Below, piece by piece: positions 8,453-30,888 of a stretch of 64,000 bases of DNA. The stretch is from NCBI GenBank assembly GCA_965237525.1, contig CBDEFO010000007.1, positions 160,001 through 224,000 on the forward strand, in the 5' to 3' direction. Origin of the DNA: Candidatus Latescibacterota bacterium (GTDB lineage Bacteria > Latescibacterota > CBDEFO01). Each line of letters opens with the position of its first letter. Within the stretch, counting starts at the first letter, position 1. The notes under the pieces were generated by a model. The model saw only the letters and a program-made list of their open reading frames with translations. It ran no database searches and was not told the origin of the DNA. The translations under genes and the position numbers were made by a program.

Positions 8453-8849
8453 TATGCTTGACACTGTCAGGCTATATTAAAATCATCGGAGGAATTACAG
8501 AAAGTGACGGAGTGATTCAAGCAAACTAAGTATTTACTTACAATCGTTTAGCAGGTTAGGAACGCGTCGCATTTTTTTAAAATAGGCGCGCAAATGCTCA
8601 ATTTTTCGAGTGATCTTAAATTCAAGGGGGGTGCCATTCGAGATCTTTACGGTTTAAATTGTCCTGCTGTTCTGGAAATCTCTAGTTGCTAAAGCTCTTA
8701 AGGATTTTCAAGTCAGCTTTCAACAACCAGTAATACACGTGAGGGAGGATAAGTCAACTATGCCAGGTTCATTAGCAGAAGACACAGACGGTGCGTTTGA
8801 GAAATCGAGTCGTTTTACTTTTCAACCTTACGGTTCAAGGAGGGATGAC

Positions 8850-14669: not shown

Positions 14670-14695
14670 CCTTGAGTCTGTAAGGAGGAGTCATC

Positions 14696-14740
14696 GGGAG
14701 TCCCCCCTGGTAGACCTTTTGGAGGGACTCCCATTTCTTG
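14696..14740 (+). terminator. Intergenic hairpin (terminator/attenuator)
   Basis: GGGAGTCCC...GGGACTCCC stem followed by ATTTCTT. Confidence 0.5.
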
Positions 14741-14775
14741 GGTACCTTTCAAGCTTTAACAAGAGGGGTGATACG

Positions 14776-15429
14776 ATGGCAAGATTAACGATTATAGGAG
14801 GTGTTGCCCTCTGGGTCTTATGCGCGGTTGGTATGGCTTCTGCCGGGCAGAATTCGGGGGCTACCATAGTTTTGGATCTTGATGCCGCAACTGCAGGCAA
14901 TCAGGCCAACGACCTTCAGCAGAACGTCGGAGCGAGTGAGGCTGTTGACATAGCGGTTTACGTCACAGGAGCGCAGAATCTGAAGGCATATCAGGTAGAC
15001 CTCATGTTCGACACGACTAAGGTTGAGTGGAATTCTGCCCTTACGGGCGATGCGTTTGGTAGAGAGGAGACGAACTTTCTGGGTTCGGAGGGAGGGGCAT
15101 TTGTCTTCGGGAACCTTCTTAAGGCGGGTACGACAGACGTAGTCAGAATACTAAACGGAATTACCGGCGCGACAGAAGCAAACGCCCCTGAGGGGGATGG
15201 CCTCATAGGTGTTATCAGCTTTACAACACTGGGAGGATTTGACACCAACGCTGATGCAATCTTCACAGTGGTGTTCTTTGAGTTTTCAGATACGAATAAT
15301 GACCTGGACACATTCGACATGCCCTCGCCTCATGACCCTGGTATTCGCGTTTTCCTAAATAAGAGAACAGCGGTTGAAGCCGACACTTGGGGGAGGGTAA
15401 AGGAGCTATTTTCGGGTCTGCTCAGGTAG
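14776..15429 (+). CDS. Secreted cohesin-like protein with C-terminal TWGRVK tail
   Basis: RBS GAGGGG, signal peptide, VDIAVYVTGAQNLKAYQVDLMFD...GDGLIGVISF; ends TAVEADTWGRVKELFSGLLR. Confidence 0.75.
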   Translation: MARLTIIGGVALWVLCAVGMASAGQNSGATIVLDLDAATAGNQANDLQQNVGASEAVDIAVYVTGAQNLKAYQVDLMFDTTKVEWNSALTGDAFGREETNFLGSEGGAFVFGNLLKAGTTDVVRILNGITGATEANAPEGDGLIGVISFTTLGGFDTNADAIFTVVFFEFSDTNNDLDTFDMPSPHDPGIRVFLNKRTAVEADTWGRVKELFSGLLR

Positions 15430-15660
15430 GCTATCTTGTACGGAATAGTAAGATATAGGCTTGCTTGAGACCTTATGAACATCCTCAAGAAGGCACAGAT
15501 GGAGATCGAGGCCGAGCGGCGAGCGCTTGAGTTCTCACTTACTTGACTTTTAAGGCTGATTTTCGTATCCTACACGTGGCCACAACTCTAGCGGCAGGTT
15601 CGGCGTGGGCCCGCTGCGGAGGAAACTGCTACTACTTACTTTCTAGAAAGGGAGATAATC

Positions 15661-16638
15661 GTGAAAAAGACCTCAATCCTGGTGGCTCTTCTTGTCGTGG
15701 CGCTCGGAGGCGTGCCGAGCCCGGCGCAAGGGCAGGGCTGGTATCTGGGGAGCGAACTGGGCGGGCATGTGGTCCCGGCCTTGGGCTTCACCGGGCTGTC
15801 CAACGACGTAGCGAGTGTGTGTGACGAGTTTATCAATCCGGAATATGCAACGGTGACACAGACGGCGGGATATGAAGCCTACAACTGCACGGGACCGGAT
15901 CGCAGTGATGACTGGGCTAATGAGTTCGCCAGGGCCACGGGCCTCCAGGCCAGCTGGGTGCTGGGGTATCGCTTCGGGGCCGACGCCTCTGGCCCGCGGT
16001 GGCACCACGTGCGGACGGAGATGGAATACTTCTACCGAGCCACCGCCTACGACCAGAGCGAAGCCGTTCCCGGCATCGGCGGTGGCTCGGGCAGCGTCAC
16101 CGCCGACAAGCTGAATCAAGAAATTCGGAAGGCGACGGACTACCTCGGCCGTGTGACCGCGCACACCCTGTTTGCCAACCTGTATTGGGACGTTCGGACG
16201 CGCAGTCGGCTCACGCCCTATGTCGGCGTGGGTGTGGGGATCGGGTGGACGGCGGTGTCCTACGGCAGTCTGTGGTCGAGGAACGCCAATGCCACGGCGA
16301 TTACCACCGGCGAGGGGCTGCCCAACGTGGACGAGATTCGCCAGAACCTAGCAGCCACGACAAGTAGCTTCCAGGGCATCCTGTCCGACAAGCTGATCAG
16401 CGAGCAGGTGCTGGTCGGAGTGAACTACGCGCTCACCGAGGGTCTGTCGGTGGGTGTCAAGGGTCGCTGGGTCCACGTTGCGGCCTTCGAGAGTCCCCAA
16501 GGCAGCCTCATCTGGGATCCGCTGCGTAGTCACGTCCCCAATCTGCGGCGCGATGGGAGCGAACCCGTCACGGGGCAGGTGCTGACCGACGCCAGCACGC
16601 TCTGGGATGTGGGCCTGAGTCTCACGTACCACTTGTAA
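15661..16638 (+). CDS. Outer-membrane beta-barrel protein (opacity/P44-like), transposon cargo
   Basis: Signal peptide, GWYLGSELG, LFANLYWD, LTPYVGVGVG and C-terminal GLSLTYHL. Visibly more GC-rich than the flanks. Confidence 0.75.
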   Translation: MKKTSILVALLVVALGGVPSPAQGQGWYLGSELGGHVVPALGFTGLSNDVASVCDEFINPEYATVTQTAGYEAYNCTGPDRSDDWANEFARATGLQASWVLGYRFGADASGPRWHHVRTEMEYFYRATAYDQSEAVPGIGGGSGSVTADKLNQEIRKATDYLGRVTAHTLFANLYWDVRTRSRLTPYVGVGVGIGWTAVSYGSLWSRNANATAITTGEGLPNVDEIRQNLAATTSSFQGILSDKLISEQVLVGVNYALTEGLSVGVKGRWVHVAAFESPQGSLIWDPLRSHVPNLRRDGSEPVTGQVLTDASTLWDVGLSLTYHL

Positions 16639-16744
16639 AGCGGGACGCTGGGTCCCCGGCTCGCCGGCCACCCCCTTCCACGGGGAGGTCCACCGTAAAG
16701 CGCGCCTCGTAGCCAGTAAGGGTGTGCCGAACGGCAACGATGCC

Positions 16745-18400
16745 TTAGGGGGCGCTCAGCGCCTCGGGCGTGGCCTTCCACAACGGAATAGCAAGATATG
16801 GGCTTGCTTGAGACCTTAGCAAGTTGTAGTGGTACCGTGTGCAAATTGTCTTCGACGGCAAGTCCAGTTTGATCTGTTGCTTGTGTTCCTTACGCCCCAA
16901 CCATAGGGAGTAGGGAGTATCGAAGGTTTTCCCCTCAAATATCTCGGCTACCGTCAATAACAGCATCCTGGGAAACAGACGCCCCTTGGCCTCCAAATGT
17001 CCAGCTTTAGCCATTTCCCTATGAAAATTGCGTTCTTTGGTTTGGCCCAGAGGTTCAAGTATAATCAGGCCAGCCATTAAGGCGCCCCAACCCTCAAGGA
17101 CTCCACGAAGTCGCTGCACAGCGGCCGTCCCGACATTCCTTCCGCCCTTGACCTAAATAATCATGCTTTGAAGCTCGCCTTCTTCTTCTAGCTCAAAATA
17201 CAAACGTCCATCTACTCCACCGTCCGCCGTGTTCTTGTCTGTTACAAAGCCGTCTACCGTTTCAACCGCCCAGGTTTGGAACGTGTACTTATCCTGCTCC
17301 CAGAGATGCCTTGCGCCCTCTACATTCTCAGGAAGTCCATCTATTTCAAAGTCACGTCCTTCTTTCAGGCCAGGACGATCTTTCAATCTGATTGCGGACA
17401 CTCGCTTAATGGCGTGTATGGCAATGTCCGTACCGATCCATTGGCGACCTGGTCTGTGCGCTGCCTCTAAAGTGCTTCCGCAGCCGCAGAAGGGATCAAA
17501 AATAACATCTCCCTTTTTACTGCTCGCCTCTATAATTCTATGCATAAGTTTCAGTGGTTTTTGCGTAGCATAGCCTGGCCTCTCTTTTGATCCGGGATTC
17601 AGAGGGTCAATCTCCCAAACATCAGGGCAGGGCCTATCTCCCGTTTTCTTCGTCTGATCTACTCTTTCCAGTTCAGGGGAAAGCCGACCGGATGATATTG
17701 CGCCTTCAACTTTTCTTTTATTGTAAACTCTTATTCTTGAACCTCTTTCCCCATTTCTTTCAATGGTATCTGTGCCCCAGCCGCGCTCTATATCTTTTCT
17801 TACTCGATCCCCTGGAACAGTTAAAACCTTGAAGGTGTGCTTGTCGGTTTTCGTGTAGAACAGAATTACATCATGTTGAGACTGCCATTTTTTGGCTTTC
17901 GCCGGCCATCTATTTTTATAATACCAAGTAATTTCGTTGCGGAAATTAGAGTGATGAAAGATAGAATCCATCATCACCTTGACATAATGACTTGCCGTGG
18001 GATCACAGTGCAAATATATCGATCCAGTAGGTTTTATAATGCGCTTGATCCAAATTAATCTTTCTGTCATATAGGCAAGATAGGCCAGCAATTCGGGTTG
18101 CGTCTCCCTAAGAGCATTCATCCATAAACGCCAGAACTCAGTAACGCTATCTTCAATGCCTGACTCCCTCATCAACACGGGCATCTGTCGAATGATGCGC
18201 TCCTTATCTTGATCGAGTGTCCAGGCATCATTGAACGCCCTTACTTGATCTGGCAAGAGCCGTCCCGTCTCATCCTTGTAGATGCTATTGTAGGCACTTT
18301 GGGAATTGAACGGCGGATCGAGGTAGACCAGATCAACACTGGCCAAGCGGATCTTATCCCTGATAATGGTGAGGCAATCCCCGAAGTAAAGGCGATTCAC
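16745..18400 (-). pseudogene. N6/N4 DNA methyltransferase fused to a C-terminal Mrr-like endonuclease domain; interrupted by an in-frame TAG at 17153
   Basis: VYLDPPFNS, YATQKP, FDPFCGCGST, then ADGGVDGRLYF...SMII*VKGG continuing in frame into ORF 16745-17119. GTG start overlaps the transposase stop. Confidence 0.85.
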
Positions 18401-19272
18401 GAGAAGCACGCCACCAGAAAGTTCTCAAAAGCATGATTGCTTTTGCGGTGGTTGTACTTAAAGCAGGCCTTAGGGACATAGAGGGGCATGTAACGCTTTG
18501 AATAGTGATGGTGCGATCCATACCAAGCCCGTTTTAGCAGCGACCAGACACCCTCTGTCGTATTGGTATGAATACCGCCCTCGGCATAGGTTTGACTGTG
18601 GTCGATTACTGAACGGGAGACGAACTTCTCAACCGCATTATAGGCGCGATATTCGTCTGTGATGAGGTGGGAACCGGCAGGATCTACAGTACCTTTGATG
18701 AATTTCAAGACGCCCTTGCCGGTTAGGTCTTTGGCTGCTTGGGCAACTACGCGGCCGCCGCGTTCTACGGCCCCGATAACTGGCGTTTTGCTGGTGCCAC
18801 GGCCCCTTGGATGCTGGGTCTTGTCGTTGCGGTGCCGCTTTCGAGGCTTCCCGCCGACATAGGTTTCGTCAGCTTCTATGCTGCGATGTAACATTCTGGC
18901 GCCGTGCTTAGACGTCATTTCGGAACGGATGCGCTCTTGCATGAAAAGTGCCGTTTGGTGTGTCAATTCAAGGTCTCTGGCAAGCTGGTAGCTCGACAAG
19001 GATTTCTTGGCATTGACCATCAACCCGATAGCCATGAACCATTTTTGAAGGGGGACTTTCGTCTTGCTCAGGATGGTGCCGGACAATACATTGAAGCTTG
19101 ACTTGCAGTTGTGGCAATTCCATCGACCTATGCGGTCGCCGTCCATCCTGCGCTCAACCCTGGGGTTTTCGCAATGCGGACAAGTTGGAACGCCGCACCA
19201 GCGCACTTTTTCAAGGTGCTCAATGCAAGCTTCCTGATCAGGGAAAAGGCTAAAAACGGTGAGTAAATTCAT
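18397..19272 (-). CDS. IS1595-family transposase
   Basis: CPHC/CHNC zinc ribbon, EADETYVGG, LITDEY, HTNTTEG and RAWYGSHH. Confidence 0.95.
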   Translation of the reverse strand: MNLLTVFSLFPDQEACIEHLEKVRWCGVPTCPHCENPRVERRMDGDRIGRWNCHNCKSSFNVLSGTILSKTKVPLQKWFMAIGLMVNAKKSLSSYQLARDLELTHQTALFMQERIRSEMTSKHGARMLHRSIEADETYVGGKPRKRHRNDKTQHPRGRGTSKTPVIGAVERGGRVVAQAAKDLTGKGVLKFIKGTVDPAGSHLITDEYRAYNAVEKFVSRSVIDHSQTYAEGGIHTNTTEGVWSLLKRAWYGSHHHYSKRYMPLYVPKACFKYNHRKSNHAFENFLVACFS

Positions 19273-19415
19273 GGCTGATCTCCTTTACAATTAAGATACA
19301 AAAATCAGCCTTAAAAGTCAAGCCCATATCTTGCTATTCCGATCTTGTATTACAATAATCGCTGTTGGAAATAACCACGCCTCAGGTCATCGTCTCCATC
19401 TAAAGCAGTACAGTT

Positions 19416-19444
19416 AAAAAGGCTATGTTGTGACATAGCCTTTT
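19416..19444. terminator. Bidirectional terminator-like hairpin
   Basis: AAAAAGGCTATGT-TGTG-ACATAGCCTTTT. Confidence 0.75.
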
Positions 19445-19481
19445 CATTTTGATGCACTGTGGACTTATGCCAAGCCTACTT

Positions 19482-19946
19482 TTACCTGAAAAGCTCCTTG
19501 ATCTTTCCCCACGTGGTCTTACCCACGTCTGTAGGCTTGAGCAGCCTCTCAACGACGGATGTTATCGAATCGTATTCGTATCCCTCCTGGCTGTAGGTGA
19601 TGTTCAGATCGCTGTCGAGAACTACAGTGTAGTTGCGCATCTTTGCGGATATGTCAGTGATCAGCCGATAGGAGACATCAAGACCTTCGGTCAGATGGGG
19701 CGTGGAGCTTACGCCTATTATCTGCACGTCTTTGTTTCTGTATTTGGCCCACATACCATTTTCGATGGATAGCGCAGTCTCTCGGTCATCACCGAAGAAA
19801 TGGACAACTATGATCTTATCCGGATAACCCTGGAGGATGTCCTGCTTTAAGTAATCCCCGAACACTGCACCTTTATCGGGGCTTGGGGCTCCGGGAACTG
19901 CGGCAAAGAGTATAAGAAGGGGTATCAACAAATAGATGGCTTTCAC
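19482..19946 (-). CDS. Secreted redoxin-fold-like protein lacking CxxC, with C-terminal TWGKIK tail
   Basis: Signal peptide. KIIVVHFF, YRNKDVQIIGVS and TVVLDSDLNITY resemble a TlpA/peroxiredoxin fold. Ends PTDVGKTTWGKIKELFR. Confidence 0.7.
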   Translation of the reverse strand: MKAIYLLIPLLILFAAVPGAPSPDKGAVFGDYLKQDILQGYPDKIIVVHFFGDDRETALSIENGMWAKYRNKDVQIIGVSSTPHLTEGLDVSYRLITDISAKMRNYTVVLDSDLNITYSQEGYEYDSITSVVERLLKPTDVGKTTWGKIKELFR

Positions 19947-19987
19947 TGCTGAACCACCTCCTGAATAAGTAGACAGTAGGGGTTGAA

Positions 19988-21275
19988 TATCAAATGAAAT
20001 CGGTGCACCTAATTTGATCTTTGTTTAGAGTATTAGTAGATTAAGTTGAGTTGATTGTCTTAACTTTAATCTACGGAGTCCTATGGACAAAGAGAGATTG
20101 GCCGTATTAAGACAAGAAGTCAACGAGATGTATTTTAAGAAAGAAATGTCAAAGCGAGAAGTTATCAAACAAGCGAGAGTTTCCAATGATTTCGTTACGG
20201 CTTGGACTAAATCTCCGGATCAGGATTTTGCCATGGATAATCGGGGTTGGCCAAAAGGAAAAAGGCAAAAATTGGCTAAAGTTGACGAACAGAGAATCAA
20301 AGAGATTTACCATAGCTTAGAGGACGATCCTTATCAGTTCTATTCAGGAGCCACTGTTATTGAACAAGAATGGAGGAATCGATATTCTAGCACCCCTCCT
20401 CCGTCGTTGCCGACTATCGGCAGAATGCTTTCAGATTTAGGACTTTCCCAGAGAAGGAAGAAAGGTAAAAACAAGGGTGCATCTCGTTATCTTTGTTATC
20501 CAGAGTATACCATTTACTATCTTTCAGGAGGCAGAGTCCTAGAATCAGACTTTATTGGTAAAAAGTATCTTACCGGCAGAACTGAGCCGGTCAACTTCGT
20601 TGGATTTTCCTTTAAGAAAGAGCCTAAGTTAAGGTATTTTCGGCGGGTTGACGGTCAAACAGCAACTAACTTTATCGAGAAGTGTCAGTCTTTCTTTGAC
20701 AGGTTTGAAAAACCAGATTTCGTTAAGGTGGACAATTGCTCGGCGACTATTGGCAGTGTTTCAGGTAAAAGGAATGTCAGCAAAGCAATGCAGTTTCTCT
20801 TGAAAAATCAAGTGATTCCGATATTTGCCGTTCCCAGAAGGCCCTTTTCTCAAGCATCTATAGAAGGCAACAATTCTGTATTTTCAAGGAAGTTCTGGAA
20901 CAGAATTCAGTTCAAAAGCTTACAAGAAGTTGATCAGAAGTTAGAATGGTTTAATCTTTCATCACAGAGATACACCGGCTACCGTCCACCTAAGCAAGAG
21001 AAGTCAAACGAGAAAGATTTCATTCCCAAGACCTATTTTATCAGACAAGTCAAACAGGACACAGAACAGACAGATAAAGCCTTTATCGATGTCCTAAATG
21101 AGAAAGTATCTCTTCCCTCCTCTTACACCAACTACTTTGTCCTGGCTGAATGGAACCTAAAAGAAGAACAATTATACATCCATTTTGAAAAAGAACAGAA
21201 ACCAAAGATTGTCCAAAACCTATCATTCAAGATCAATCAAAGATCGAAAGAGAAGTGCACCGATTTCATTTGATA
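19988..21275 (+). mobile_element. Insertion sequence, family not assigned
   Basis: Perfect 21-bp IRs TATCAAATGAAATCGGTGCAC at 19988-20008 and 21255-21275. The outer TA could be a target duplication. Confidence 0.88.
20083..21273 (+). CDS. DDE/integrase-core transposase
   Basis: N-terminal HTH-like region, ESDF / KVDN / SIEGNN candidate DDE triad; the stop codon lies inside the right IR. Confidence 0.85.
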   Translation: MDKERLAVLRQEVNEMYFKKEMSKREVIKQARVSNDFVTAWTKSPDQDFAMDNRGWPKGKRQKLAKVDEQRIKEIYHSLEDDPYQFYSGATVIEQEWRNRYSSTPPPSLPTIGRMLSDLGLSQRRKKGKNKGASRYLCYPEYTIYYLSGGRVLESDFIGKKYLTGRTEPVNFVGFSFKKEPKLRYFRRVDGQTATNFIEKCQSFFDRFEKPDFVKVDNCSATIGSVSGKRNVSKAMQFLLKNQVIPIFAVPRRPFSQASIEGNNSVFSRKFWNRIQFKSLQEVDQKLEWFNLSSQRYTGYRPPKQEKSNEKDFIPKTYFIRQVKQDTEQTDKAFIDVLNEKVSLPSSYTNYFVLAEWNLKEEQLYIHFEKEQKPKIVQNLSFKINQRSKEKCTDFI

Positions 21276-21326
21276 AATAACCAGTAGTCAGTAAACAGGG
21301 CACCTCTCCTCTCCCTGTCTGTCCAG

Positions 21327-22382
21327 CTATTCGGTTCTGAGCATATTGCCTTCCTTGATATCGCTGTAGCCTTCAATTATCCTTGCTTTGGAAAAGTGCT
21401 TGGCAGTGACTTCAATGACCTGGATAGTTCCTACCTTTATCTCATCGGTTTTTCCCACTACCTTGCCCGTGATAGGGTCTGAAAGCTCTTCTCCCTCTTG
21501 ATATACACTATATTTGTCTCCTGCCTCAACTCCATCGGCGATCCCTATGTTGACATACACCTCATCGTCTTGGACCCAGAGTACGACAGGATCCGAGACT
21601 TCGGGCTGAGGCGGTGGTTCTATGTATTCTTCGATTTTGGCTTTGATCTGTTCAGAACACCTTGTAAAGGCTATGCCTACTACAGTATCTTTGAGCTCCT
21701 CTGACTCGAATTCATAGTTTCCCATCTCAAAGAACTCTTTGTTCCTCTGTCTTGCTTTGTCATCCCGATAACTGGCTCCAAGTTCGTTGTCATCGTATTC
21801 CCCAACTCCCTCGATTATGCCGAGTTCCATTCCGTCCACAACGCGAAAGATCGTCAGTTTTACATTGACATATGCTCCGTACCTGAAGAATCCGGCGAGT
21901 GGAACTCCAGCTCTGAAGCGAGTTACGTTAAAGTTTTCGATCTCTCCGGTCAGGACGAAGTCAGCTTTGACGTCTCGACCTATCTGGATGGCTCTTTCGT
22001 TTTTAAATTTACCGAGAGTCTCTTTTCCATCCTTCAATCGCTCCAATATTGCGCCATGCGGAACTGTTTTGTAGAAGGGATTTTCCGACAGTTTCTGAGC
22101 GATAGCTTGAGGAACGCTGTTTACTATGTCCCAGGTCCCCTTTAATTTGGATCTATCCTCCAAGGGGAGTATAAGCAGAGTCTGGGACCCTGTGGAGTGC
22201 GAAAATAGAGTGTCCTGTACAGCCTTGCCATTCGTCTTTTGTACGTTTGGGGAGGTCTGAACCGATGAATATCCCAAAGCGACCAGAGCCGACAGAACGC
22301 CAACGCCGAGTATTCTGGGTAGTCGACTGTTAGGACTACTTTTCAAAGCTGCGCCAGAACCTGTCTTGCCTCTTTTGTTCAT
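21327..22382 (-). CDS. CsgG/TolB_N-like plus FlgT C-terminal-like envelope protein
   Basis: N-terminal hydrophobic segment, AIQIGRDVKADFVLTGEIENF, VYVNIGIADGVEAGD and LSDPITGKVVG. Confidence 0.65.
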   Translation of the reverse strand: MNKRGKTGSGAALKSSPNSRLPRILGVGVLSALVALGYSSVQTSPNVQKTNGKAVQDTLFSHSTGSQTLLILPLEDRSKLKGTWDIVNSVPQAIAQKLSENPFYKTVPHGAILERLKDGKETLGKFKNERAIQIGRDVKADFVLTGEIENFNVTRFRAGVPLAGFFRYGAYVNVKLTIFRVVDGMELGIIEGVGEYDDNELGASYRDDKARQRNKEFFEMGNYEFESEELKDTVVGIAFTRCSEQIKAKIEEYIEPPPQPEVSDPVVLWVQDDEVYVNIGIADGVEAGDKYSVYQEGEELSDPITGKVVGKTDEIKVGTIQVIEVTAKHFSKARIIEGYSDIKEGNMLRTE

Positions 22383-22394
22383 ATCAGTTCACCT

Positions 22395-23675
22395 TTACGC
22401 CGCTTTTCTGATTTTAGGGAGGACGTATGGTCCCTTCGGTATTACCGCTATTTTAGCATCTCTACCGGATTTTTGAAGGGCCTGCTGGACTCCGTCCTCT
22501 ACAGATTCTACAGGTTGAACCATAATGCTTTTAGCTCGTTGGGAATCTATGCCTTCGCTGTATAAGAGTACCTCGCCCCTTTTGAGGGCTTTACACATCT
22601 CCTGCACCTGCCATTGGTCGTGGCAGAAGAACATGGGGCTTTTTATGGTTTGAAGGAAGTTTTCGGGATCTTTTGTGTCATTAAGGAGGCGGGAAAACTC
22701 CGAACTCCCGATACCTTCAGTGCATCGGGAAGCTACAATAAGCGTCCCATCTTGCTTCAGCACGGGTAAAGCGGCGGTCATACCCTTTATGGTCTGGTAG
22801 AATGTGAGGTCGAGAGGGTATCCCGCGCTGGTAGTTATCACTATATCGGCGAGCTCATCAAGATAGGCGGTAGATTGTCTTTCGACGAATTTTACGCCTG
22901 CCCAGTGGGCGGCTTCAAGTTCGCCACAGAAGAGTCCGGTTATCTGTCTTTTTCCGTTGATGGCTACATTGAGGCTAAAATCGACCCCGGCTTTGTGTGC
23001 AACTTCTAACATCTGTTGATGTACAGGGTTGCCATCAATTATGCCTTCAGCTGCCCGGGGCGATGAGAGTATTTCATATCCGTGCAGGACTTTGACAGTT
23101 TCGACTCCGCATATCCCGGGGCAGATAGCCTTTCTCCCGCCTGAGTAGCCCGCCATAAGGTGAGGTTCAATCAGGGAGGTGGCGATCGTGAGATCGGATT
23201 CGAGGTAGAGCGTATTGACATAGACAGGCACGCCGAACGAAGTCTCACCGAGGTGGCTTAGCGTATCTTTTTCACTGGATAGGTGATTGACTATCTTGTA
23301 GTTTCGGACTATATGCTCCCCGACCATTGTGCTGAGCTCTTGCTCCGTATTGGGTCGATGGAGTCCCGTCCCGACGAGGATGGTGATATTTTCTTTGGGG
23401 ATGTCAGAGTCCTGGAGGACCTTCAGCATTGGTGGCAAAATAGTTTCGTTGGGCACAGGCCTGGTGATGTCTGAGATGACGATACAGGCGTTTCTTTTGC
23501 CATGTGCAAGCTCCCAAAGCGGTGGCGAGGATGCAGGGTTTTCAAGGCCCTCCAAGACGGCTGATTGTGGGTCCTGTAGAGGTTCCACTGGTTTTATGTC
23601 GAGAACGCCCTCTAGATTCTGATCGGGAAGATCGACCCAGAGTCCTTCTTTTCCATAGGCGAGTTTGATTTTCAA
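22395..23675 (-). CDS. larA: LarA-family nickel-dependent racemase/epimerase
   Basis: ISDITRPVPN, GTGLHR, EPHLMAGYSGGRKAICPG and GYPLDLTFYQTIKG. Likely TTG start at 23675 after GGGAG. Substrate not determinable. Confidence 0.85.
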   Translation of the reverse strand: MKIKLAYGKEGLWVDLPDQNLEGVLDIKPVEPLQDPQSAVLEGLENPASSPPLWELAHGKRNACIVISDITRPVPNETILPPMLKVLQDSDIPKENITILVGTGLHRPNTEQELSTMVGEHIVRNYKIVNHLSSEKDTLSHLGETSFGVPVYVNTLYLESDLTIATSLIEPHLMAGYSGGRKAICPGICGVETVKVLHGYEILSSPRAAEGIIDGNPVHQQMLEVAHKAGVDFSLNVAINGKRQITGLFCGELEAAHWAGVKFVERQSTAYLDELADIVITTSAGYPLDLTFYQTIKGMTAALPVLKQDGTLIVASRCTEGIGSSEFSRLLNDTKDPENFLQTIKSPMFFCHDQWQVQEMCKALKRGEVLLYSEGIDSQRAKSIMVQPVESVEDGVQQALQKSGRDAKIAVIPKGPYVLPKIRKAA

Positions 23676-23918
23676 ATCTCTAATCTCCCTACTGCTGAGT
23701 GGATCGAGGTTTCTGCCCCTCGCAATGTCAGGAGACACGCGATGGCATTGTAATGCATCTATGACAGCCACAGCAAACGAAGCAATCTCGTAGAGAGGGT
23801 ACTGCCCCTCCTAAACCGTGTACATCCACAAAGGAGTCGCCCAACACGAAGTCCTCGGCTATTCCTAGAGCGCCTCTGAGTCCCAGGGGGAATTCCTACC
23901 CTGGGGTTATTGTCTGCC

Positions 23919-24082
23919 GGGTGTAAAAGAGATTTACCATTGTGTTCCCGGTTCTAAATGCTCTAAAAGATGGAGTTTGTTGTCATCAAACAGCGTGTGC
24001 AAAAATCCAGGATCTTTATCGAAGTGATCTTCTACGGAACGCTTACTTTTTCCTGTGACAAATGGTAAATTCTTTGACTCCC
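23919..24082. mobile_element. Possible MITE/IS remnant
   Basis: Imperfect ~22-bp inverted ends GGGTGTAAAAGAGATTTACCATT and (reverse complement) GGGAGTCAAAGAATTTACCATT. No ORF and no clear target duplication. Confidence 0.35.
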
Positions 24083-24330
24083 TGTCGGGTCATCTCCTCG
24101 ACCGTCTGCTGGCCTACGGGCTTTATCCCGACGGGGAGCATCACCTTGGGCTGAGATTTTGTACCAGGCTGTAGTTTAGTGCCCAGTTCAGCTTATGTTT
24201 TCCCTTGACAGCTTGGGTTTTATGTATTAAAGTTCGCTCTATCAATCGGACAATCTCGTACAAAATATAACCTTGGGGCTTGGAAATGTCAAGCTAAAAT
24301 GGTCTGATGTAATATATCTGATATGTACTC

Positions 24331-24561
24331 TTGAATTTAGGGGGAGTCTTTATCTGTCAGATAATCTTATATCCGGGCAAGGATGGTTTTTGGATATTAG
24401 AATGTTTCAGCCTTCCAGGATGTATAAGTCAGGGAACGACAAGGGAGGAGGCACTAAGGAATATCAAGGAGGCTATCGAGTGTTACATTGAGAGTTTGGA
24501 AGAGGATGGTCTGCCGGTGCCCCCTGATAGAATTGAGGCTATGGTGGTGACGATTGAATAG
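24331..24561 (+). CDS. hicB: HicB-family antitoxin (start uncertain or damaged)
   Basis: SLPGCISQGTTREEALRNIKEAIECYIESLEEDGLPVP. Confidence 0.8.
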   Translation: MNLGGVFICQIILYPGKDGFWILECFSLPGCISQGTTREEALRNIKEAIECYIESLEEDGLPVPPDRIEAMVVTIE

Positions 24562-24774
24562 ACTTCCAACACTGTCAGGAAAAAAGTTGATCAAGCTTCT
24601 ACAAAAGACCGGATTTTACGTACAACGACGGAAGGGGAGTCATATGAAATTGAGAGGGATGATCCCTTCTGCCAGGTTGTCGTTCCTGATCATAGGACCT
24701 TAGAGAGAGGCACGCTGAGAGGAATCATCAGACAGACAGGAATGTCCGTTGATTAATTCATCAATCTCGTATAG
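24554..24774 (+). pseudogene. hicA: HicA-family toxin, frameshifted with an internal TAA
   Basis: LPTLSGKKLIKLLQKTGF...RKGSH, then in a shifted frame VVVPDHRTLERGTLRGIIRQTGMSVD*F. Confidence 0.8.
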
Positions 24775-25164
24775 AGACCATCGTAGAGCGCGAAGGAGAT
24801 AGGAATCTCTTGCCATCTGTGTCGGCGAATACTCCGATCACTTGAAAAATGCCGCAAACTCCTAAAATAATTGCTCATACGCTCAAAAAAAGATTGACCT
24901 TGCGACAAGAATGTAATAAATTGATATAACACGAAATCCTAGATGCTCTAAACGTCTTATTCTTCGAGCAGCCATACTCGTTGTAGCAGCTTTGGTTCTC
25001 TAATGAAGTGTGGGAACACCGAATCTCTCTGGAAGTCCGCTTGATCAGGATCTAATCAGAAAAAATTTGAACTTAGTGTTCTAAATCACAAAAAATCTTA
25101 TCCGGATGTCTTATAATATTATTTGATTAATCTCTTTATCAACAGAAAAAGGGGACATCTTTCG

Positions 25165-26049
25165 ATGAAATTAGTCACGTTTGATTATAAGAAGAAAGAG
25201 AATTTCGGAGCTTTACTAGGGCAGGAGAATATTGTTGATTTAGGAAGTGTAGCCGGATCTGTAATAGAACTTTTAGGGATGCGGGATGAGGGAATAGAGA
25301 GAGCGCGCAGGGCGGTTGAGGAAAATGAGCCGGCATTGAAGTTGAAGGATGTGACCTTGAAAGCCCCTGTGCCAAGGCCTTCTAAGCTTTTGTGTTTGGC
25401 TGGGAATTACGCAGAACATATAAGAGAGGGAGGTGGAGAAGTGAGCGAGAAGGAAAAGACGACCCCGCGCGTGTTTATGAAACCTCCTTCCACAACGGTG
25501 ATAGGCTCAGGGCAGCCCATAATCCTGCCTAAGAATGCCAACAAGATAGATTGGGAGTGCGAAATTGGAGCTGTGATAGGAAAGAACGCGCGTTTTGTGA
25601 GCGCAGATGAGGCTCTGGATTATGTTGCTGGTTATACTATCGTAAACGATGTATCGGAAAGAGCGTTGAAGATCGAAAAGGACAGAGAGCCGAGGGACGG
25701 AGACGGTTGGTTCGACTGGCTAAACGGCAAGTGGTTCGATACGTTTGCCCCTATGGGTCCCTGTCTTGTGTTGAAGGATGAGATGCAAGACCCTCAAAGC
25801 TTAAGGATTACTTTAAGGGTGAACGGAGAGACAAAGCAGGATTCCAATACCAGTCAGATGATATTTACTGTGGCTGAGCTGGTGGAATGGGCGTCCACGT
25901 TAGTGACGTTGGAGCCGGGCGACGTTATATCGACGGGGACACCCTCGGGTGTAGGATCAACTACAGGGACGTTTCTTTCTGCGGGAGATGTTGTAGAGGC
26001 TGAGATCGAGGGGATAGGAATACTGAGGAATCCTGTGGAGAAAGGGTAG
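25165..26049 (+). CDS. Fumarylacetoacetate hydrolase family protein
   Basis: KLLCLAGNYAEH, DWECE, GYTIVNDVSER, GKWFDTFAPMGP and PGDVISTGTP. Confidence 0.95.
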   Translation: MKLVTFDYKKKENFGALLGQENIVDLGSVAGSVIELLGMRDEGIERARRAVEENEPALKLKDVTLKAPVPRPSKLLCLAGNYAEHIREGGGEVSEKEKTTPRVFMKPPSTTVIGSGQPIILPKNANKIDWECEIGAVIGKNARFVSADEALDYVAGYTIVNDVSERALKIEKDREPRDGDGWFDWLNGKWFDTFAPMGPCLVLKDEMQDPQSLRITLRVNGETKQDSNTSQMIFTVAELVEWASTLVTLEPGDVISTGTPSGVGSTTGTFLSAGDVVEAEIEGIGILRNPVEKG

Positions 26050-26092
26050 GCTTTCAACGGCTGTTGGATCACCCATTAGCTTGGACGAACAT

Positions 26093-27046
26093 ATGAATAT
26101 AAAGTTCTGGGGCGTGAGAGGTTCCATCCCAACTCCCATTGGTCCTAAGGAGATTCGAAAAAAGATAGAAGACGTCCTCTTTGAGGCAAAGGACATAAAG
26201 TTTTCCAGCCGGGAAGACGTAACTAAGTATGTGGAGGGACTGCATTATCTGCAGCGAGGCACAGTTGGGGGCAACAGCTCCTGCGTGGAAGTCCAGACGC
26301 AGACTGGACATGTTCTTATTCTGGACGCGGGCTCGGGGATCGTAAAGCTGGGAGCAGAATTGATGAAAGGGGATTTCGGAAGGGGTAGCGGGGTAGCTCA
26401 CATATTTTTGTCTCATACTCATTGGGATCATATTATAGGTTTTCCGTTGTTTACTCCTGCGTATATTAAGGGAAACAGGATAATCTTTTACGGCGTGCAC
26501 GAAGATTTAGAGAAAAGGCTAAGACACCAGCAAAATGCCCCCGACCATTTTCCGGCGTCCCTGGAATTGATGGAAGCTGATATAGAATTTGTTCAGCTTA
26601 AAGGGAAGAAAAAGCTGAAGATAGGTAGCATGACTGTGGATAGCAAGGAGCTTTACCATCCGGGCGCAGCTTACAGTTATAGGATCACAGAAAATGAGAA
26701 GACCTTGGTCTATGCGACAGACGGTGAGTATAAGGTGGAGTGGGAAAATGTGCAGCAGTATCATAGCTATTATCAAAACGCCGATGTGTTGATCTTCGAC
26801 GCTATGTATACTGCTGGAGAGGCGATCGACCGCGAGGACTGGGGTCACAGCACCTCATTCATAGGAGCAGACATAGCGTCTATTACGGGGATCAAAAAGC
26901 TCGTATTGTTTCATCACTATCCCGCACGAGATGATGAGGCTATACATAGGATTTTGAAAGAGACAGAGGCGTACTGGAACGATCTCTATTCGGACTTTGA
27001 TTGTGAGATACTCATGGCACACGAGGGATTAGAAATAGAAATATAA
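26093..27046 (+). CDS. MBL-fold metallo-hydrolase (cyclic nucleotide phosphodiesterase-like)
   Basis: FWGVRGSIP, GGNSSCVE, SHTHWDHIIG, WGHS and LFHH. Confidence 0.92.
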   Translation: MNIKFWGVRGSIPTPIGPKEIRKKIEDVLFEAKDIKFSSREDVTKYVEGLHYLQRGTVGGNSSCVEVQTQTGHVLILDAGSGIVKLGAELMKGDFGRGSGVAHIFLSHTHWDHIIGFPLFTPAYIKGNRIIFYGVHEDLEKRLRHQQNAPDHFPASLELMEADIEFVQLKGKKKLKIGSMTVDSKELYHPGAAYSYRITENEKTLVYATDGEYKVEWENVQQYHSYYQNADVLIFDAMYTAGEAIDREDWGHSTSFIGADIASITGIKKLVLFHHYPARDDEAIHRILKETEAYWNDLYSDFDCEILMAHEGLEIEI

Positions 27047-27137
27047 CGTTTTTACTCCCAAAATATTCTTCGATACTTTTCGGGGCTCCCGAGTATATTA
27101 TTGCGAAAGCTCCTTTATCGAAGATCATCTTAGTACC

Positions 27138-27171
27138 GGCGGAAGCCATCAAGGTTTCCGCCTCTTTTTTT
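27138..27171 (+). terminator. Rho-independent terminator
   Basis: GGCGGAAGCC-ATCAA-GGTTTCCGCC followed by a T-tract. Confidence 0.8.
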
Positions 27172-27379
27172 GTTTCGCCGGATAGCACGATAAAGAAAAC
27201 AGATAATTACGATCCTGATAATCACAAAAACTCCTTGACATCCGCGAAAATATAGTTTTAATTGTACATAAAGAGTGATTGTGCTGTTTTTGTGCGTTGT
27301 CAGTGCAAGAATATCCAAGAAGACAAGTCTCATGTAGCTTGTTGATGGGAGTTGTCTTGTAAGGAGGTGATGAAACAAA

Positions 27380-28483
27380 ATGACAAGACGAGCAGTGAAA
27401 CCTTCCACAGTTCTGGCTACGATAACTTTCGTTATCTTGGGTATCGCTGCACAAATACACGCCCAGATGTCCGCCCCAATTATCACTAATTACGTCAGAG
27501 CAGTGGCAGTACTACCTGGAGGGAACGCGGTCTATGTGGGCATTGAAGAATTTGAAACGGGCGGGGTCCTTCGAATAAATGTAGATACTGGAGAAGTACA
27601 AGCGATGAACGAGGGTTTAACAGACCTGAATCTCCGCAGCCTCGTCATTGATCCTTCCGATCCATCACGGATCTATGTAGCTTCGGGAGAGGGTATCTTT
27701 CGCAGCGAAGATGGAGGAAGACACTGGATAGGGATCAACCAGGGGATATCTTCGGGTGGTATAAATGAAATCTGGGTAAGTTCCCTTAATTCGGACTTGC
27801 TATTGGCACAAGGTGCAGTCGGCTCTGTTTACCGTACAGATGATGGAGGGAACCAGTGGCGTTTGTTGTATGTGCCTCGTATCGACTATGGAAGTAATTG
27901 GGAGACTGCAATCGAAGCGACCAGTAACGGCAGTACTATCTTTGCCTTCAAGGCCGGCGTACCTTTCCGTCGGAGCACTGATGGTGGTGAGACCTGGGAG
28001 GATCTTTCAATAGTGAGTAGGGCCTTCGCGTTCTCTTCGGACGAGAAAATCTTTTACGCTGGCAAAGGATTAATCAGAGATGAAAGAGCGGTGGTCGTAT
28101 ATCGGAGTCTGGACGAAGGAGATACGTGGGAGGGACTCGAGTATGGTCCTCCGATCGATACTGAAGAATATCGGCTTCCTCAATGGGGAAACACTATCTG
28201 CCTGCTGCCAGATCCACACGCTCCTGGTGTTATCTATGCGGGTACTACAGAGGGGGTGTTTTACACGACTGATGGGGGAGTTGTCTGGCAGCCTTTGGGC
28301 AGTCAACCGTTGAACTTTGAAGAATGGAACGGTCTTGTTTTTGCACTGGCCTTAGACCTGGATAGATCGCGTCTTTACGTCGGGAGGCCTGACGGTCTGT
28401 TCTTCGTGCCGCTTCCAGAGTATCCTGATCCGACCGCTGTGGAGGCTAATTCGTGGGGAAAGATTAAAAGCCTTGTGAAATAG
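27380..28483 (+). CDS. Secreted BNR/Asp-box beta-propeller protein with C-terminal SWGKIK tail
   Basis: Signal peptide and five S/TxDGGxxW-type Asp boxes. Ends PTAVEANSWGKIKSLVK; the last codons come from the adjacent IS end. Confidence 0.85.
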   Translation: MTRRAVKPSTVLATITFVILGIAAQIHAQMSAPIITNYVRAVAVLPGGNAVYVGIEEFETGGVLRINVDTGEVQAMNEGLTDLNLRSLVIDPSDPSRIYVASGEGIFRSEDGGRHWIGINQGISSGGINEIWVSSLNSDLLLAQGAVGSVYRTDDGGNQWRLLYVPRIDYGSNWETAIEATSNGSTIFAFKAGVPFRRSTDGGETWEDLSIVSRAFAFSSDEKIFYAGKGLIRDERAVVVYRSLDEGDTWEGLEYGPPIDTEEYRLPQWGNTICLLPDPHAPGVIYAGTTEGVFYTTDGGVVWQPLGSQPLNFEEWNGLVFALALDLDRSRLYVGRPDGLFFVPLPEYPDPTAVEANSWGKIKSLVK

Positions 28484-29987
28484 TTATGTCGCAGGCAGCG
28501 TCTGAAGCGCCGATTATGGGTCAAAGAGTAGCATATCGTATCGTTTTGCTGTGGAATAAGCAAAATAGTCTTATCAGAGTTCTGGTCAGCAAGGAATAGG
28601 AGCTGTTTGAAGAACAGGATGCACTGTCTTTGACAGACAGGGCACACATAGACGCTTTCCCCCTTCTTATGAAAGATACAAGCCTCTTGAGATTCTGTAC
28701 TGTTGCAACAAGATTCAACTGTTCATTCAGTGAGGCTGGTCCTCTGTAACGGGCTCGTCCCATACCGTGTTGTTGCCTGGCTTCAGCAAAGATATGTTCA
28801 CTGCGTTTACGGAGTCTCCGGGAGAGTTTGTAGTCAGCTGTTAATGAGATAGACCGTGCATGATTTCTGGCTTTCGCCTCTCGCACTTTTCTATCCCGTT
28901 CGGCCTGAATATGTGCTGAATTTGTCTTGTTTTTCCATGTAGGAATCGGTTCAATCTTCTCATCGGCTCGCAGAGGAATATGGGGTATGATTCCCCGGTC
29001 AAGTACATCAGCGATAAAATTACCAGAACCGTAACCGGTATCGGCACTAAGTGTCTGAATGTCTTTGGGCATGGTGTATGTTTCAAGGTCATCTACCATC
29101 TTAAGGGCACTTTCGGGCTCTGCTGTCCCTGTCGCCTGCGTGCCCTGAGTCTCAAGGATTACTCTGCTTTTTGTGTCGATCAGATCATGGCCCATAAACG
29201 AGAGAAAAGCCCCTTTGCCCTTCGATTTGCTGTATAAGCGCGCGTCGGGGTCTGTAGTCGAACGGTGTGTTTGGTTCGTCCACTTTTCACCATGAAAGTC
29301 TTTATCCTGAGGATGCCCGGACCTACCCTTTGTCTTATCACCTTCAAAACCGATTCCCTTGAGATAATCATCAAGAGAAACAGGGGGTTCTATCGGCTCA
29401 ATACTTTTCACTGAAGCATCAGCTTGTATCTGAGTGCCGTCGACACTAAGGTGTTTACCGCTCACAAGACCGACATCTATGCAACACTGGACTACCTGAC
29501 GCATTATCCGTTCAAACAACCCACTGGATGCCCACTTGTGATTGCGAAGCTTGTTGATCGTGCTCCTATCCGGAACCGCATCATCAAATGTCTGATGACA
29601 AAACAACCGATATGCCGCATGCATCCCCACTTCCTGACAGAGCCGATTCTCACTCAAATTATACAGATAGCCAATAAGGATCATTCGAACAACTAATTCA
29701 GGATCAATACCGGGTCTGCCATTGTCAGGGCAATAACAATCTGATACAACGTCTCGTACAAATGAAAAATCAACTGCCTCATCAATCTGACGAAGGATAT
29801 GATCCTCGGGAACTAAATCCTCCATCTGAAAATAGTGAAACATCGGATTTGTCTGTTCCTGCTTTTGTGGGGTCATTGTTTCCTCCATGTATAATATTAT
29901 CAATAACATAATATAATACATCGGAGCTGCTTTATCAATGCTTGTTTTATACTATTTTCTGAATCTAAGGGTTTTTCACAAGGCTTC
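28468..29987 (-). mobile_element. IS1182-family insertion sequence
   Basis: IRs AAGCCTTGTGAAA (28468-28480) and TTTCACAAGGCTT (29974-29986), with TAA on both flanks. Confidence 0.85.
28521..29876 (-). CDS. IS1182-family transposase
   Basis: LVPEDHILRQID, GRPGIDPE, SVDGTQIQADAS, STTDPDARL, ADTGYG and RSEHIFAE. Confidence 0.93.
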   Translation of the reverse strand: MTPQKQEQTNPMFHYFQMEDLVPEDHILRQIDEAVDFSFVRDVVSDCYCPDNGRPGIDPELVVRMILIGYLYNLSENRLCQEVGMHAAYRLFCHQTFDDAVPDRSTINKLRNHKWASSGLFERIMRQVVQCCIDVGLVSGKHLSVDGTQIQADASVKSIEPIEPPVSLDDYLKGIGFEGDKTKGRSGHPQDKDFHGEKWTNQTHRSTTDPDARLYSKSKGKGAFLSFMGHDLIDTKSRVILETQGTQATGTAEPESALKMVDDLETYTMPKDIQTLSADTGYGSGNFIADVLDRGIIPHIPLRADEKIEPIPTWKNKTNSAHIQAERDRKVREAKARNHARSISLTADYKLSRRLRKRSEHIFAEARQQHGMGRARYRGPASLNEQLNLVATVQNLKRLVSFIRRGKASMCALSVKDSASCSSNSSYSLLTRTLIRLFCLFHSKTIRYATL

Positions 29988-29988
29988 T

Positions 29989-30888
29989 AAGTTCATACAG
30001 AAAGTGGACGAATGGGCATATAGAGACCGCGAAAATCTAAAAAAGATGGGATGCGAACCGATTTATCATGAAAAACACTATCCGGAAAGAGCCGCCGTTG
30101 TGGATTTTGTACGAAACGCTAACATTAGCTCAAGCTATTATCCATGGGGAAAACCCCTCCGATACGGAGATTTCCATCATTTCCGGCCTGTCCAGGTATT
30201 CATAAGCCCAGATATGCTCTTTGATGAGCCTATAGATTACCTGGAGAAAAGGGCGCAGGAATTGGGCGACGAGATAGGCTGTCTATTTAGGGATGGCCAC
30301 AGAGAGCGTATGGATATTGTACGTAGGTACTATGAGGATTTATTTCCCGAACTTCTTAAAAAAAATAGCTGGCTTTTCGATAGCAAGGAATCACTATTAA
30401 GTCTAAAGAGAAATTGGAAAAGAAAGAAACTTGGACTTGATCAATTATGGAGGGATTTTGATGACATTATGAAAAAGGCAAATGAGTTAATTAGAGAGAT
30501 TGAACGATCTATTGAAGCCGCCAGGAAAGATATTTCACAAGCTTATCCTGTACCAATACCAGATCCCGTTACTGGAGAACTGCTTTGGTCCCGTATGGAA
30601 TTATCAGAAGTCCTTACGGAAAACCAGGGGACAGTCTTATTCCGTCTCTTGAGGGGAAAAGAAGTTAAACGCGAAGAGTTTACAACATATAATGGAGATC
30701 CGTTCATGGTTGACCAATTACGACAGGATCTAAGTGCTCTGAGAAAACTATACCCTGGGTTGATCCCCCAAGGGACGACGAGGAAGGAAGGCCACTCCTA
30801 CTACGTAATCGTTGAGAATAAAGCCCTGCAGTACTTCCGTGAAGGTGATCTCAAGCGTATAAGGCAACAGCAGCCAAAGGAAGCATAA
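29989..30888 (+). pseudogene. Hypothetical protein, 5'-truncated by IS1182; possible C-terminal winged-helix
   Basis: The 300-codon open frame begins at the IS boundary, and the track's ATG at 29938 lies inside the IS. Confidence 0.5.

Follow-up and report, generated by a model that had tools for sequence, protein, structure and literature searches.

Three exported proteins encoded in a 64,000-nucleotide stretch of a Candidatus Latescibacterota genome (assembly GCA_965237525.1, contig CBDEFO010000007.1, positions 160,001 to 224,000; this whole stretch is the window referred to below) end in nearly the same short tail, about 15 residues long, with the consensus T-AVE-x-x-[TS]WGx[IV]K-x-x-[FY]. 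We propose, with a probability of about 0.5, that this tail is a two-part address which would dock small exported proteins at an outer-membrane accessory of the T9SS (type IX secretion system). It is likely a docking label for type IX machinery because its core also ends a conserved lipoprotein that is encoded beside type IX genes. New here are the range of the tail over several phyla, a pair of lipoproteins connected with it, a PorU with serine at its catalytic position, and tandem and internal copies of the motif.

A tail shared by unrelated exported proteins

The original prediction was built on near-identical C-terminal motifs in three open reading frames (ORFs), all of which lie where it placed them, tail 1 ending five residues later than it gave; no other ORF of the window matches, in line with its remark that the cytoplasmic ORFs lack the motif.

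14776..15429, + strand: exported cohesin-like protein with tail; 217 aa from ATG 14776, the ORF opening at TTG 14719
15367..15411, + strand: tail 1, TAVEADTWGRVKELF, then five more residues
19482..19946, - strand: exported 154-aa protein with no assigned family, with tail
19485..19532, - strand: tail 2, TDVGKTTWGKIKELFR, without the small residue that X/(GSA)(VLI), the consensus, calls for
27380..28483, + strand: exported BNR/sortilin-type beta-propeller with tail; two paralogues elsewhere in the genome
28433..28468, + strand: tail 3, TAVEANSWGKIK, cut after Lys by the end of an insertion sequence (IS); the aromatic at +7 is lost here and kept in the paralogues

The C-terminal ends read TAVEADTWGRVKELFSGLLR (14719/14776-15429, +), PTDVGKTTWGKIKELFR (19482-19946, -) and PTAVEANSWGKIKSLVK (27380-28483, +). 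The secretion predicted for all three is suggested by signal-peptide-like N-termini, called by eye and with a simple heuristic, not SignalP. Among the fold labels given earlier, beta-propeller is sound (BNR/sortilin, Pfam E 2.6e-10), and 'redoxin-like' has to be dropped for the 19482..19946 protein, which has no significant match in Pfam, NCBIfam or PDB. The cohesin label stands in part: the Pfam Cohesin match (E 0.0026) is below cut-off, and the protein is 32% identical to a cohesin protein bearing a type IX C-terminal domain (CTD; C3:251440). With one domain of the CTD protein G000:C8:1349104 it shares 73% identity over 181 aa (G000 being this genome); a homologue search with it gave two close relatives only, and its single-sequence structure model (pLDDT 33) was discarded. 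The propeller does carry the motif, but its final residues are altered because they derive from the IS end; both of its paralogues read KIKSVFTEE at the tail.

Across the genome (4.58 Mb, 96.6% complete) the motif is enriched at C-termini, as anticipated. The regular expression [TS]WG.[IVL]K, run over 16,620 ORFs of at least 60 aa, matched 26 times, 23 of these terminally (within 15 residues of the C-terminus), against a mean of 0.5 terminal among 2.7 total matches in 20 residue-shuffled sets; a tail profile at 15 bits or more found 25 C-terminal matches and no internal one among the genome ORFs. Enrichment for signal peptides was likewise expected, and 15 of 19 tail ORFs of at least 150 aa are positive by the heuristic compared with 473 of 2323 background ORFs, as are 45 of 66 tail ORFs in relatives. 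Our working set of 26 tail ORFs forms 12 unrelated groups, and the carriers among relatives form 22. The main carrier is an unnamed exported family of 300 aa (12 of the 26 tails here, 40 of 66 complete ORFs in relatives) with no Pfam or NCBIfam match (e.g. G000:C8:2017988-2022072, C4:527746-531192), which may resemble CBM9-type sugar-binding domains; named passengers are CHRD and BNR propeller proteins and, weakly, cohesin and TIMP. Several of the 26 are gene fragments, two doubtful ones (C8:458897 and C8:660611) were omitted from the distance test below, and degenerate copies of the tail exist in the genome besides the one cut by the IS.

Searching the genome collection for DNA that encodes AVExx[TS]WGxIK exactly, with no stop required, yielded 110 loci in 7 of its 64 parts. 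A stop follows 3-13 residues past the Lys in 108 of them; one of the remaining two runs off its locus and the other, with a stop inside it, matched by chance. Of these 108 tails 71 have Thr before AVE, a position on which the search put no constraint. Taking W as 0, an aliphatic residue stands at +3 and an aromatic at +7 (82/108); net charge is about +1.7, and the last residue varies (R 33, Q 19, K 16, E 16, F 6). No tail has a transmembrane helix (0/108), in agreement with the original prediction, hydropathy in 19-residue windows of the last 40 residues reaching at most 1.41 and never 1.6. The description 'amphipathic' applies weakly (mean hydrophobic moment 0.36 at 100 degrees and 0.50 at 180 degrees).

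The tail profile matched nothing significant in the PDB, searching the ESM Atlas with a tail produced no match of use, and 19 matches at E <=0.001 were found among 1.84 billion representatives, including P0015, which we rejected as a low-complexity false match. That no characterised sorting domain accounts for the tail agrees with these searches, which returned no named family, and with a search of the published literature (most subscription papers and supplements being outside its scope), which returned no description of it.

The core of the tail ends a lipoprotein encoded beside type IX genes

The core recurs at the end (TWGELRARFLN) of a 199-aa lipoprotein, here lipoprotein A (G000:C8:1174671-1175270). 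Its gene lies two genes after a PorV-family pair, which itself follows a gene for a CTD-bearing propeller, and is succeeded by the gene of a tail-less paralogue, lipoprotein B (G000:C8:1175454-1176110); a further lipoprotein B lies at C8:1453050-1453682. Orthologues of lipoprotein A in ten families (numbered f1, f2 and so on below) end [TS]WGxLRAx[FY], and a relaxed form of this ending is found in 33 of 43 aligned members. In 28 of 30 loci lipoprotein A has an M50 peptidase gene next to it, and in nine of the 11 genomes with coordinates for both, the distance to PorV-family genes is no more than about 5 kb. As an observation on gene order, the conserved cluster G000:C8:1169801-1176110 (L244) comprises the CTD-bearing BNR propeller, two PorV-family barrels, the M50 peptidase and the two NTF2-fold lipoproteins.

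No Pfam or NCBIfam family names lipoprotein A, and no solved relative was found by sequence. In an AlphaFold2 model made from 43 sequences (pLDDT 91.8) the motif forms a predicted helix at residues 173-181 (helix pLDDT 96), and Foldseek places the modelled fold among NTF2/SnoaL proteins (probability 1.00, TM-score to target up to 0.75). This helix aligns with the cargo tail in hhalign at E 0.0002 over 13 columns. Some NTF2-like domains bind short aromatic-glycine peptides. Nearest to the lipoprotein in the ESM Atlas, at 0.96, are clusters without a name that occur most often in Ignavibacteriota, Bacteroidota and Rhodothermota. A near-invariant C-x-N-P-F opens the NTF2-fold lipoproteins and resembles the PNPF with which local CTDs begin. 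Two other identities were rejected: lipoprotein A as BamH, which is a two-domain carbohydrate-binding-fold protein in the part of its description available to us (PMC12611786), and the PorV-family pair as BamG, its PDB matches being PorV only, bar one unrelated-looking PCNA chain.

Among 151 genomes of the same phylum the lipoprotein family occurs in 94, comprising 79 of the 80 that bear tails as well as members of f4, f6 and f11; f7, f13 and f14 lack it (0/56 genomes) and are also tail-less. Lipoprotein B is without tail in f1, f2, f3, f5, f6, f8 and f10.

Further copies lie outside the usual single terminal position. The lipoprotein-family members P0002, P0004 and P0005 end in two to four tail copies, and L109 and L331 in a full cargo tail; L331 (G008:C231) is a single 440-residue frame made up of an internal CTD, an NTF2-lipoprotein-family domain and the terminal tail. 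An internal copy is found in a Tat-type aldo-keto reductase, where WG.[IV]K is present in four of 13 homologues and degenerate in others, within a stretch that some homologues lack. In this genome the gene at G000:C3:253225-254350 (L022), which is split over two frames, codes for a leader of the twin-arginine type and, inside the protein, a TWG-like stretch; C8:1495512 and C7:602925 are the positions of its paralogues.

The tail and type IX secretion

The genome encodes SprA (764 bits, cut-off 200), PorV-family proteins (244, cut-off 90) and PorU (710, cut-off 420), with PorU followed by PorV, 12 PorV-family matches in all and 88 ORFs matching CTD profiles. Tail and CTD exclude each other, as had been predicted: the tail is on none of the 88 CTD ORFs, and it stands directly before a CTD in none of these 88, of the 110 genome matches or of 121 metagenome variant matches. 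Across all fetched loci, one of 181 tail ORFs (L331, where it is internal) also has a CTD. Neither the three window tails nor their proteins match a CTD family, and inspection of the tail alignments revealed none of the motifs B, D (GxY) and E as described in PMC11969387. Three tail families (cohesin-like, CHRD and the unnamed 300-aa family) have paralogues among CTD proteins, their likeness stopping at the tail or a few residues before it, and in six of 17 cases a tail locus has a CTD gene within 3 kb, compared with a background of 9.5%.

The earlier suggestion of a TAV linker common to tails and CTD cargo is supported by TA[VI] in the linker before 13 of 61 CTDs, as against 1.5% of background windows. 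The PorU site, given as X/(GSA)(VLI) in the part of the study we rely on (Gorasia 2015, PMC4560394), fits 19 of the 26 tails in the genome and two of the three window tails. The same part reports that PorU C690A abolishes cleavage (Gorasia 2015, PMC4560394), and the CTD architecture is called essential in the section that we cite of another study (Mizgalska 2024, PMC11285876). CTDs may also be short, three-stranded and of 40-55 aa, with the consensus cleavage PT/GI, in Prevotella intermedia (Ye 2025, PMC11969387).

The only C25 gene of the genome (G000:C4:430770-434645; L028:5770-9645) keeps the His and has Ser aligned where Porphyromonas gingivalis PorU has its catalytic Cys, and no other C25 gene is present despite the 88 CTD ORFs. 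Across 31 loci this position is Ser in eight and Cys in 23; Ser is common to seven of eight f12 loci, and a sequencing error is therefore unlikely. Such a PorU would be either a serine sortase or an inactive scaffold. It was ruled out as the partner of the tail because six tail-bearing families (f2, f3, f5, f8, f9, f10) keep Cys. The tail-bearing families have one C25 frame of about 1250-1350 aa, often plus a long one (about 1900 aa), and in the tail-less f7 and f13 the listed C25 matches are a single gene with a frame of about 1900 aa. Directly upstream of porU in this genome is a lipoprotein-like ORF with long His/Asp-rich repeats (G000:C4:429276-430358).

A tail-specific PorV paralogue was considered from a list of loci and not adopted, and a complex of PorV with a 33-residue tail, predicted from single sequences, scored 0.00 and is not used as evidence. 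Of the GldKLMN/PorKLMN motor and ring, GldM and GldN were looked for and found in none of five genomes, by searches in which no positive control matched.

Distribution across genomes and phyla

Most titles of loci matching AVExx[TS]WGxIK name Latescibacterota, Eisenbacteria or 'Gemmatimonadota'; Handelsmanbacteria, Krumholzibacteriia, Coatesbacteria and unclassified metagenome-assembled genomes (MAGs) also occur, and no title names Bacteroidota; the closest titled relative of a tail protein of this genome (L106, 93% identical) is labelled Latescibacterota. The tail occurs in 80 of the 151 own-phylum genomes: in all genomes of f1, f2, f3, f5, f8, f9 and f10, in f12 (67/67) and in one of 11 of f6, and in none of f4, f7, f11, f13 or f14. 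A broader profile run on 24 chosen genomes added low-copy real tails in f6 (4/11) and f11, none in f4, and one weak match among six genomes of f7, f13 and f14. It is also present in 48 of 61 genomes of an Eisenbacteria-centred sample (genome G172 being counted in its tallies), and 100 other genomes, from a control phylum, all lack it; all 31 matches checked from these searches are terminal. Up to about 50 tail proteins were detected per genome. AV-x4-KLATTWG, which we take to be a longer variant, matched 121 times in metagenomes (37 of the listed matches being copies of one apparently wrong-frame sequence), with 72 terminal matches, of which 26 have the strict AV prefix; AV-to-TWG spacing differs between variants.

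Profiling for a co-occurring channel or peptidase had originally been suggested. SprA is found in all 80 tail-bearing own-phylum genomes and in 61/61 of the Eisenbacteria-centred sample, yet it is near-universal among the own-phylum genomes (149/151), as are the PorV family (151/151) and C25 (148/151). In the own-phylum sample, then, every tail-bearing genome has SprA, but the presence of SprA is no guide to that of the tail.

A proposed docking model

The motif stands at the end, in tandem and internally with a near-invariant W-G and K, and so behaves as a ligand for a protein site would. The tandem copies on lipoproteins, the internal copy in a Tat-type enzyme and the Ser-type PorU are easier to reconcile with a docking peptide than with a signal that is simply cleaved and anchored, and the native copy on a conserved lipoprotein points the same way; the earlier idea that the tail may itself be the secretion or anchoring signal stays a conjecture. 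We therefore consider a protein-docking peptide the probable nature of the tail, and the data point to terminal address tagging as the commonest use of that peptide. Whether its partner is tied to the T9SS seems to us evenly balanced.

In the model that we propose, the two parts of the address are the T-AVE stretch, which fits the published PorU cleavage consensus, and the [TS]WGx[IV]K..[FY] peptide, which is predicted to be helical and would do the docking. Cargo would first be exported by Sec to the periplasm, as the signal-peptide-like N-termini suggest. In lipoprotein A the TWG core is the native last helix, as judged from sequence and predicted structure, and would pack on the protein's own NTF2 domain. 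Since lipoprotein A holds the same helix, its site is the simplest candidate for binding the tail, and lipoprotein B, of the same family and without the helix in most lineages, would offer that site empty and could take the tail in trans; lipoprotein B as the partner is nevertheless rather doubtful. The mutual exclusion, paralogue pairs and co-occurrence suggest that docked cargo would be held at or passed to the SprA/PorV pathway, the tail replacing the 80-residue CTD, so that cargo would either cross the outer membrane through SprA or only be held there. The T-AVE prefix suggests an encounter of docked cargo with PorU, in some lineages at least. Cargo would not need to be cleaved at T/AV and anchored to glycan; these events are plausible in lineages whose PorU retains Cys and doubtful in this genome because its only C25 enzyme has Ser; for PorU cleavage in at least some lineages we judge the odds somewhat unfavourable. 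The fullest version of the model, which we hold tentatively and regard as unlikely in all its details, is a second, peptide-based cargo route: the conserved NTF2-fold lipoprotein pair of the PorV-family operon would work by helix complementation, and dozens of small exported proteins per genome would have borrowed the last helix of A, be captured by B and be fed to SprA or displayed at the surface without a CTD, even where PorU has Ser.

Several observations weigh against this proposal. SprA, the PorV family and C25 are near-universal in the sample, and their co-occurrence with the tail is therefore weakly informative. The paralogue pairs, except C3:251440, are mostly not clean tail-for-CTD swaps, extra domains lying between passenger and CTD. 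Seven of the 26 tails, window tail 2 included, do not fit the cleavage consensus, and the hhalign probability for the alignment of lipoprotein A with the tail is 48%. The lipoprotein profile, derived from positive families, may overlook distant relatives, and f7, f13 and f14 may be one clade, so that their joint absence may be one event. Family f4 has lipoproteins but no tails (0/4) and f6 only 0-2 tails per genome, and in f12, the lineage richest in tails, lipoprotein B itself carries a degenerate tail. Two MAGs (G151, G152) carry 1-3 tails, on short contigs, and neither SprA nor PorV was found in them, for which mis-binning is our guess.

Other explanations

The strongest competitor, in our view unlikely, takes the tail as a minimal T9SS signal read by PorV or a PorV paralogue, with PorU cutting T/AV, glycan anchoring to follow and the lipoprotein as mere cargo. 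It would account for the cleavage consensus in most tails, their absence from CTD proteins, the 12 PorV-family matches and the Cys-type PorU of six tail-bearing families, and the 40-55 aa CTDs of P. intermedia (PMC11969387) lend it some precedent. The tail, however, has neither beta-sheet nor motifs B, D and E, although CTD architecture is essential according to the cited section (PMC11285876), and the genome's only C25 enzyme, like those of seven of eight f12 loci, has Ser at the Cys whose replacement abolishes cleavage in the cited part of the PorU study (PMC4560394). Internal and tandem copies also fit poorly with one terminal cut, as does the varying AV-to-TWG spacing.

That the tail is a machinery-free amphipathic helix binding a membrane or lipopolysaccharide surface is quite unlikely. 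The spacing of W, aliphatic and aromatic at 0, +3 and +7, the net positive charge and the helix predicted in lipoprotein A would suit such a role, tandem copies would add avidity, and the membrane-targeting helices of MinD and FtsA are of this kind. Yet a near-invariant W-G and K and a conserved acidic T-AVE prefix exceed what lipid binding needs, the hydrophobic moment does not peak at 100 degrees, the tails are limited to lineages bearing SprA and the lipoprotein, and such a helix would be of small benefit to a protein already anchored by lipid.

That the tag docks proteins in the periplasm on a chaperone, protease or scaffold which has nothing to do with type IX secretion appears distinctly improbable. 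The copy inside an enzyme of the Tat type, atypical as T9SS cargo, speaks for it, as do the two MAGs with tails and no SprA and the failure to find GldM and GldN in five genomes (with no positive control matched); the PorU-type prefix, the closeness to CTD genes and the native copy in a PorV-family operon speak against it. A functionless remnant spread by gene duplication is scarcely credible: the dominance of the unnamed family and the degenerate and IS-cut copies would fit, but not 12 unrelated groups here, 22 among relatives, several phyla and a conserved core.

Other features of the window

Two further features adjoin the tail genes.

8739..14669, + strand: canonical T9SS cargo of 1976 aa with type A CTD (TIGR04183 over cut-off; PF13860 E 2.4e-12), a weak dockerin match and no tail
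28464..29990, - strand: IS1182/IS5-like element abutting tail 3; transposase 28521-29921, with NCBIfam transposase matches

The gene for the 1976-aa CTD protein is 50 bp upstream of the tail-1 ORF, and a cohesin-dockerin pairing between that protein and the cohesin-like tail protein (window 8739-15429) is possible. The IS is bounded by 17-nt inverted repeats (28464-28480 / 29974-29990) and has 133 near-identical full copies in the genome. At 15661-16638 the window encodes an Opacity/surface-antigen-like outer-membrane protein (weak Pfam matches) with related sequences in contigs from three RNA runs; the contigs of these runs cover this neighbouring barrel gene and do not cover the tail.

Implications and comparison with known systems

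T9SS cargo has so far been defined by a folded CTD studied in Bacteroidota, and a 15-residue tag would, if our docking proposal is true, add a second class of signal. Hypothetical proteins with the tail would become annotatable as envelope-addressed, and the two unannotated lipoproteins, which have look-alikes in clusters from Ignavibacteriota, Bacteroidota and Rhodothermota, would become candidates for T9SS accessories. Surface display is a further possible use of so short a tag, and peptide binding to one small domain is a prediction open to in vitro test without culturing the organism.

The LPXTG, PEP-CTERM and GlyGly-CTERM tags are short C-terminal signatures on unrelated exported proteins, and the tail resembles them in this. 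Unlike them it has no transmembrane helix after the signature, and by its sequence it falls outside the sortase tags on that account; no dedicated sortase turned up, though no search was aimed at such enzymes, and an M50 peptidase adjoins the lipoprotein. The tail also differs from the beta-signal of the beta-barrel assembly machinery and from fixed-terminus (PDZ-type) ligands, having no conserved terminal residue at a fixed end. Lipoprotein A has the fold of NTF2-like (SnoaL/DUF4440) proteins, but belongs to no named Pfam or NCBIfam family.

Among the closest known systems is the T9SS type A CTD (TIGR04183, PF18962, PF13860), which is shuttled by PorV and processed by the sortase PorU. Both are C-terminal modules on diverse Sec-exported proteins, both are preceded by an X/(GSA)(VLI) site, and they share passenger families and occur in genomes with SprA, PorV and PorU. 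The tail, however, is 15-20 residues and predicted helical rather than a beta-sandwich of 70-80 aa; it occurs in tandem, internally and on lipoproteins, and here never at the same terminus as a CTD, and its predicted fold and missing motifs place it outside the CTD families. P. intermedia's short CTDs keep motifs B, D and E in three-stranded sheets, none of which the tail has, yet they show that T9SS signals can shrink, and their PT/GI resembles the PT/AV of the tail (PMC11969387).

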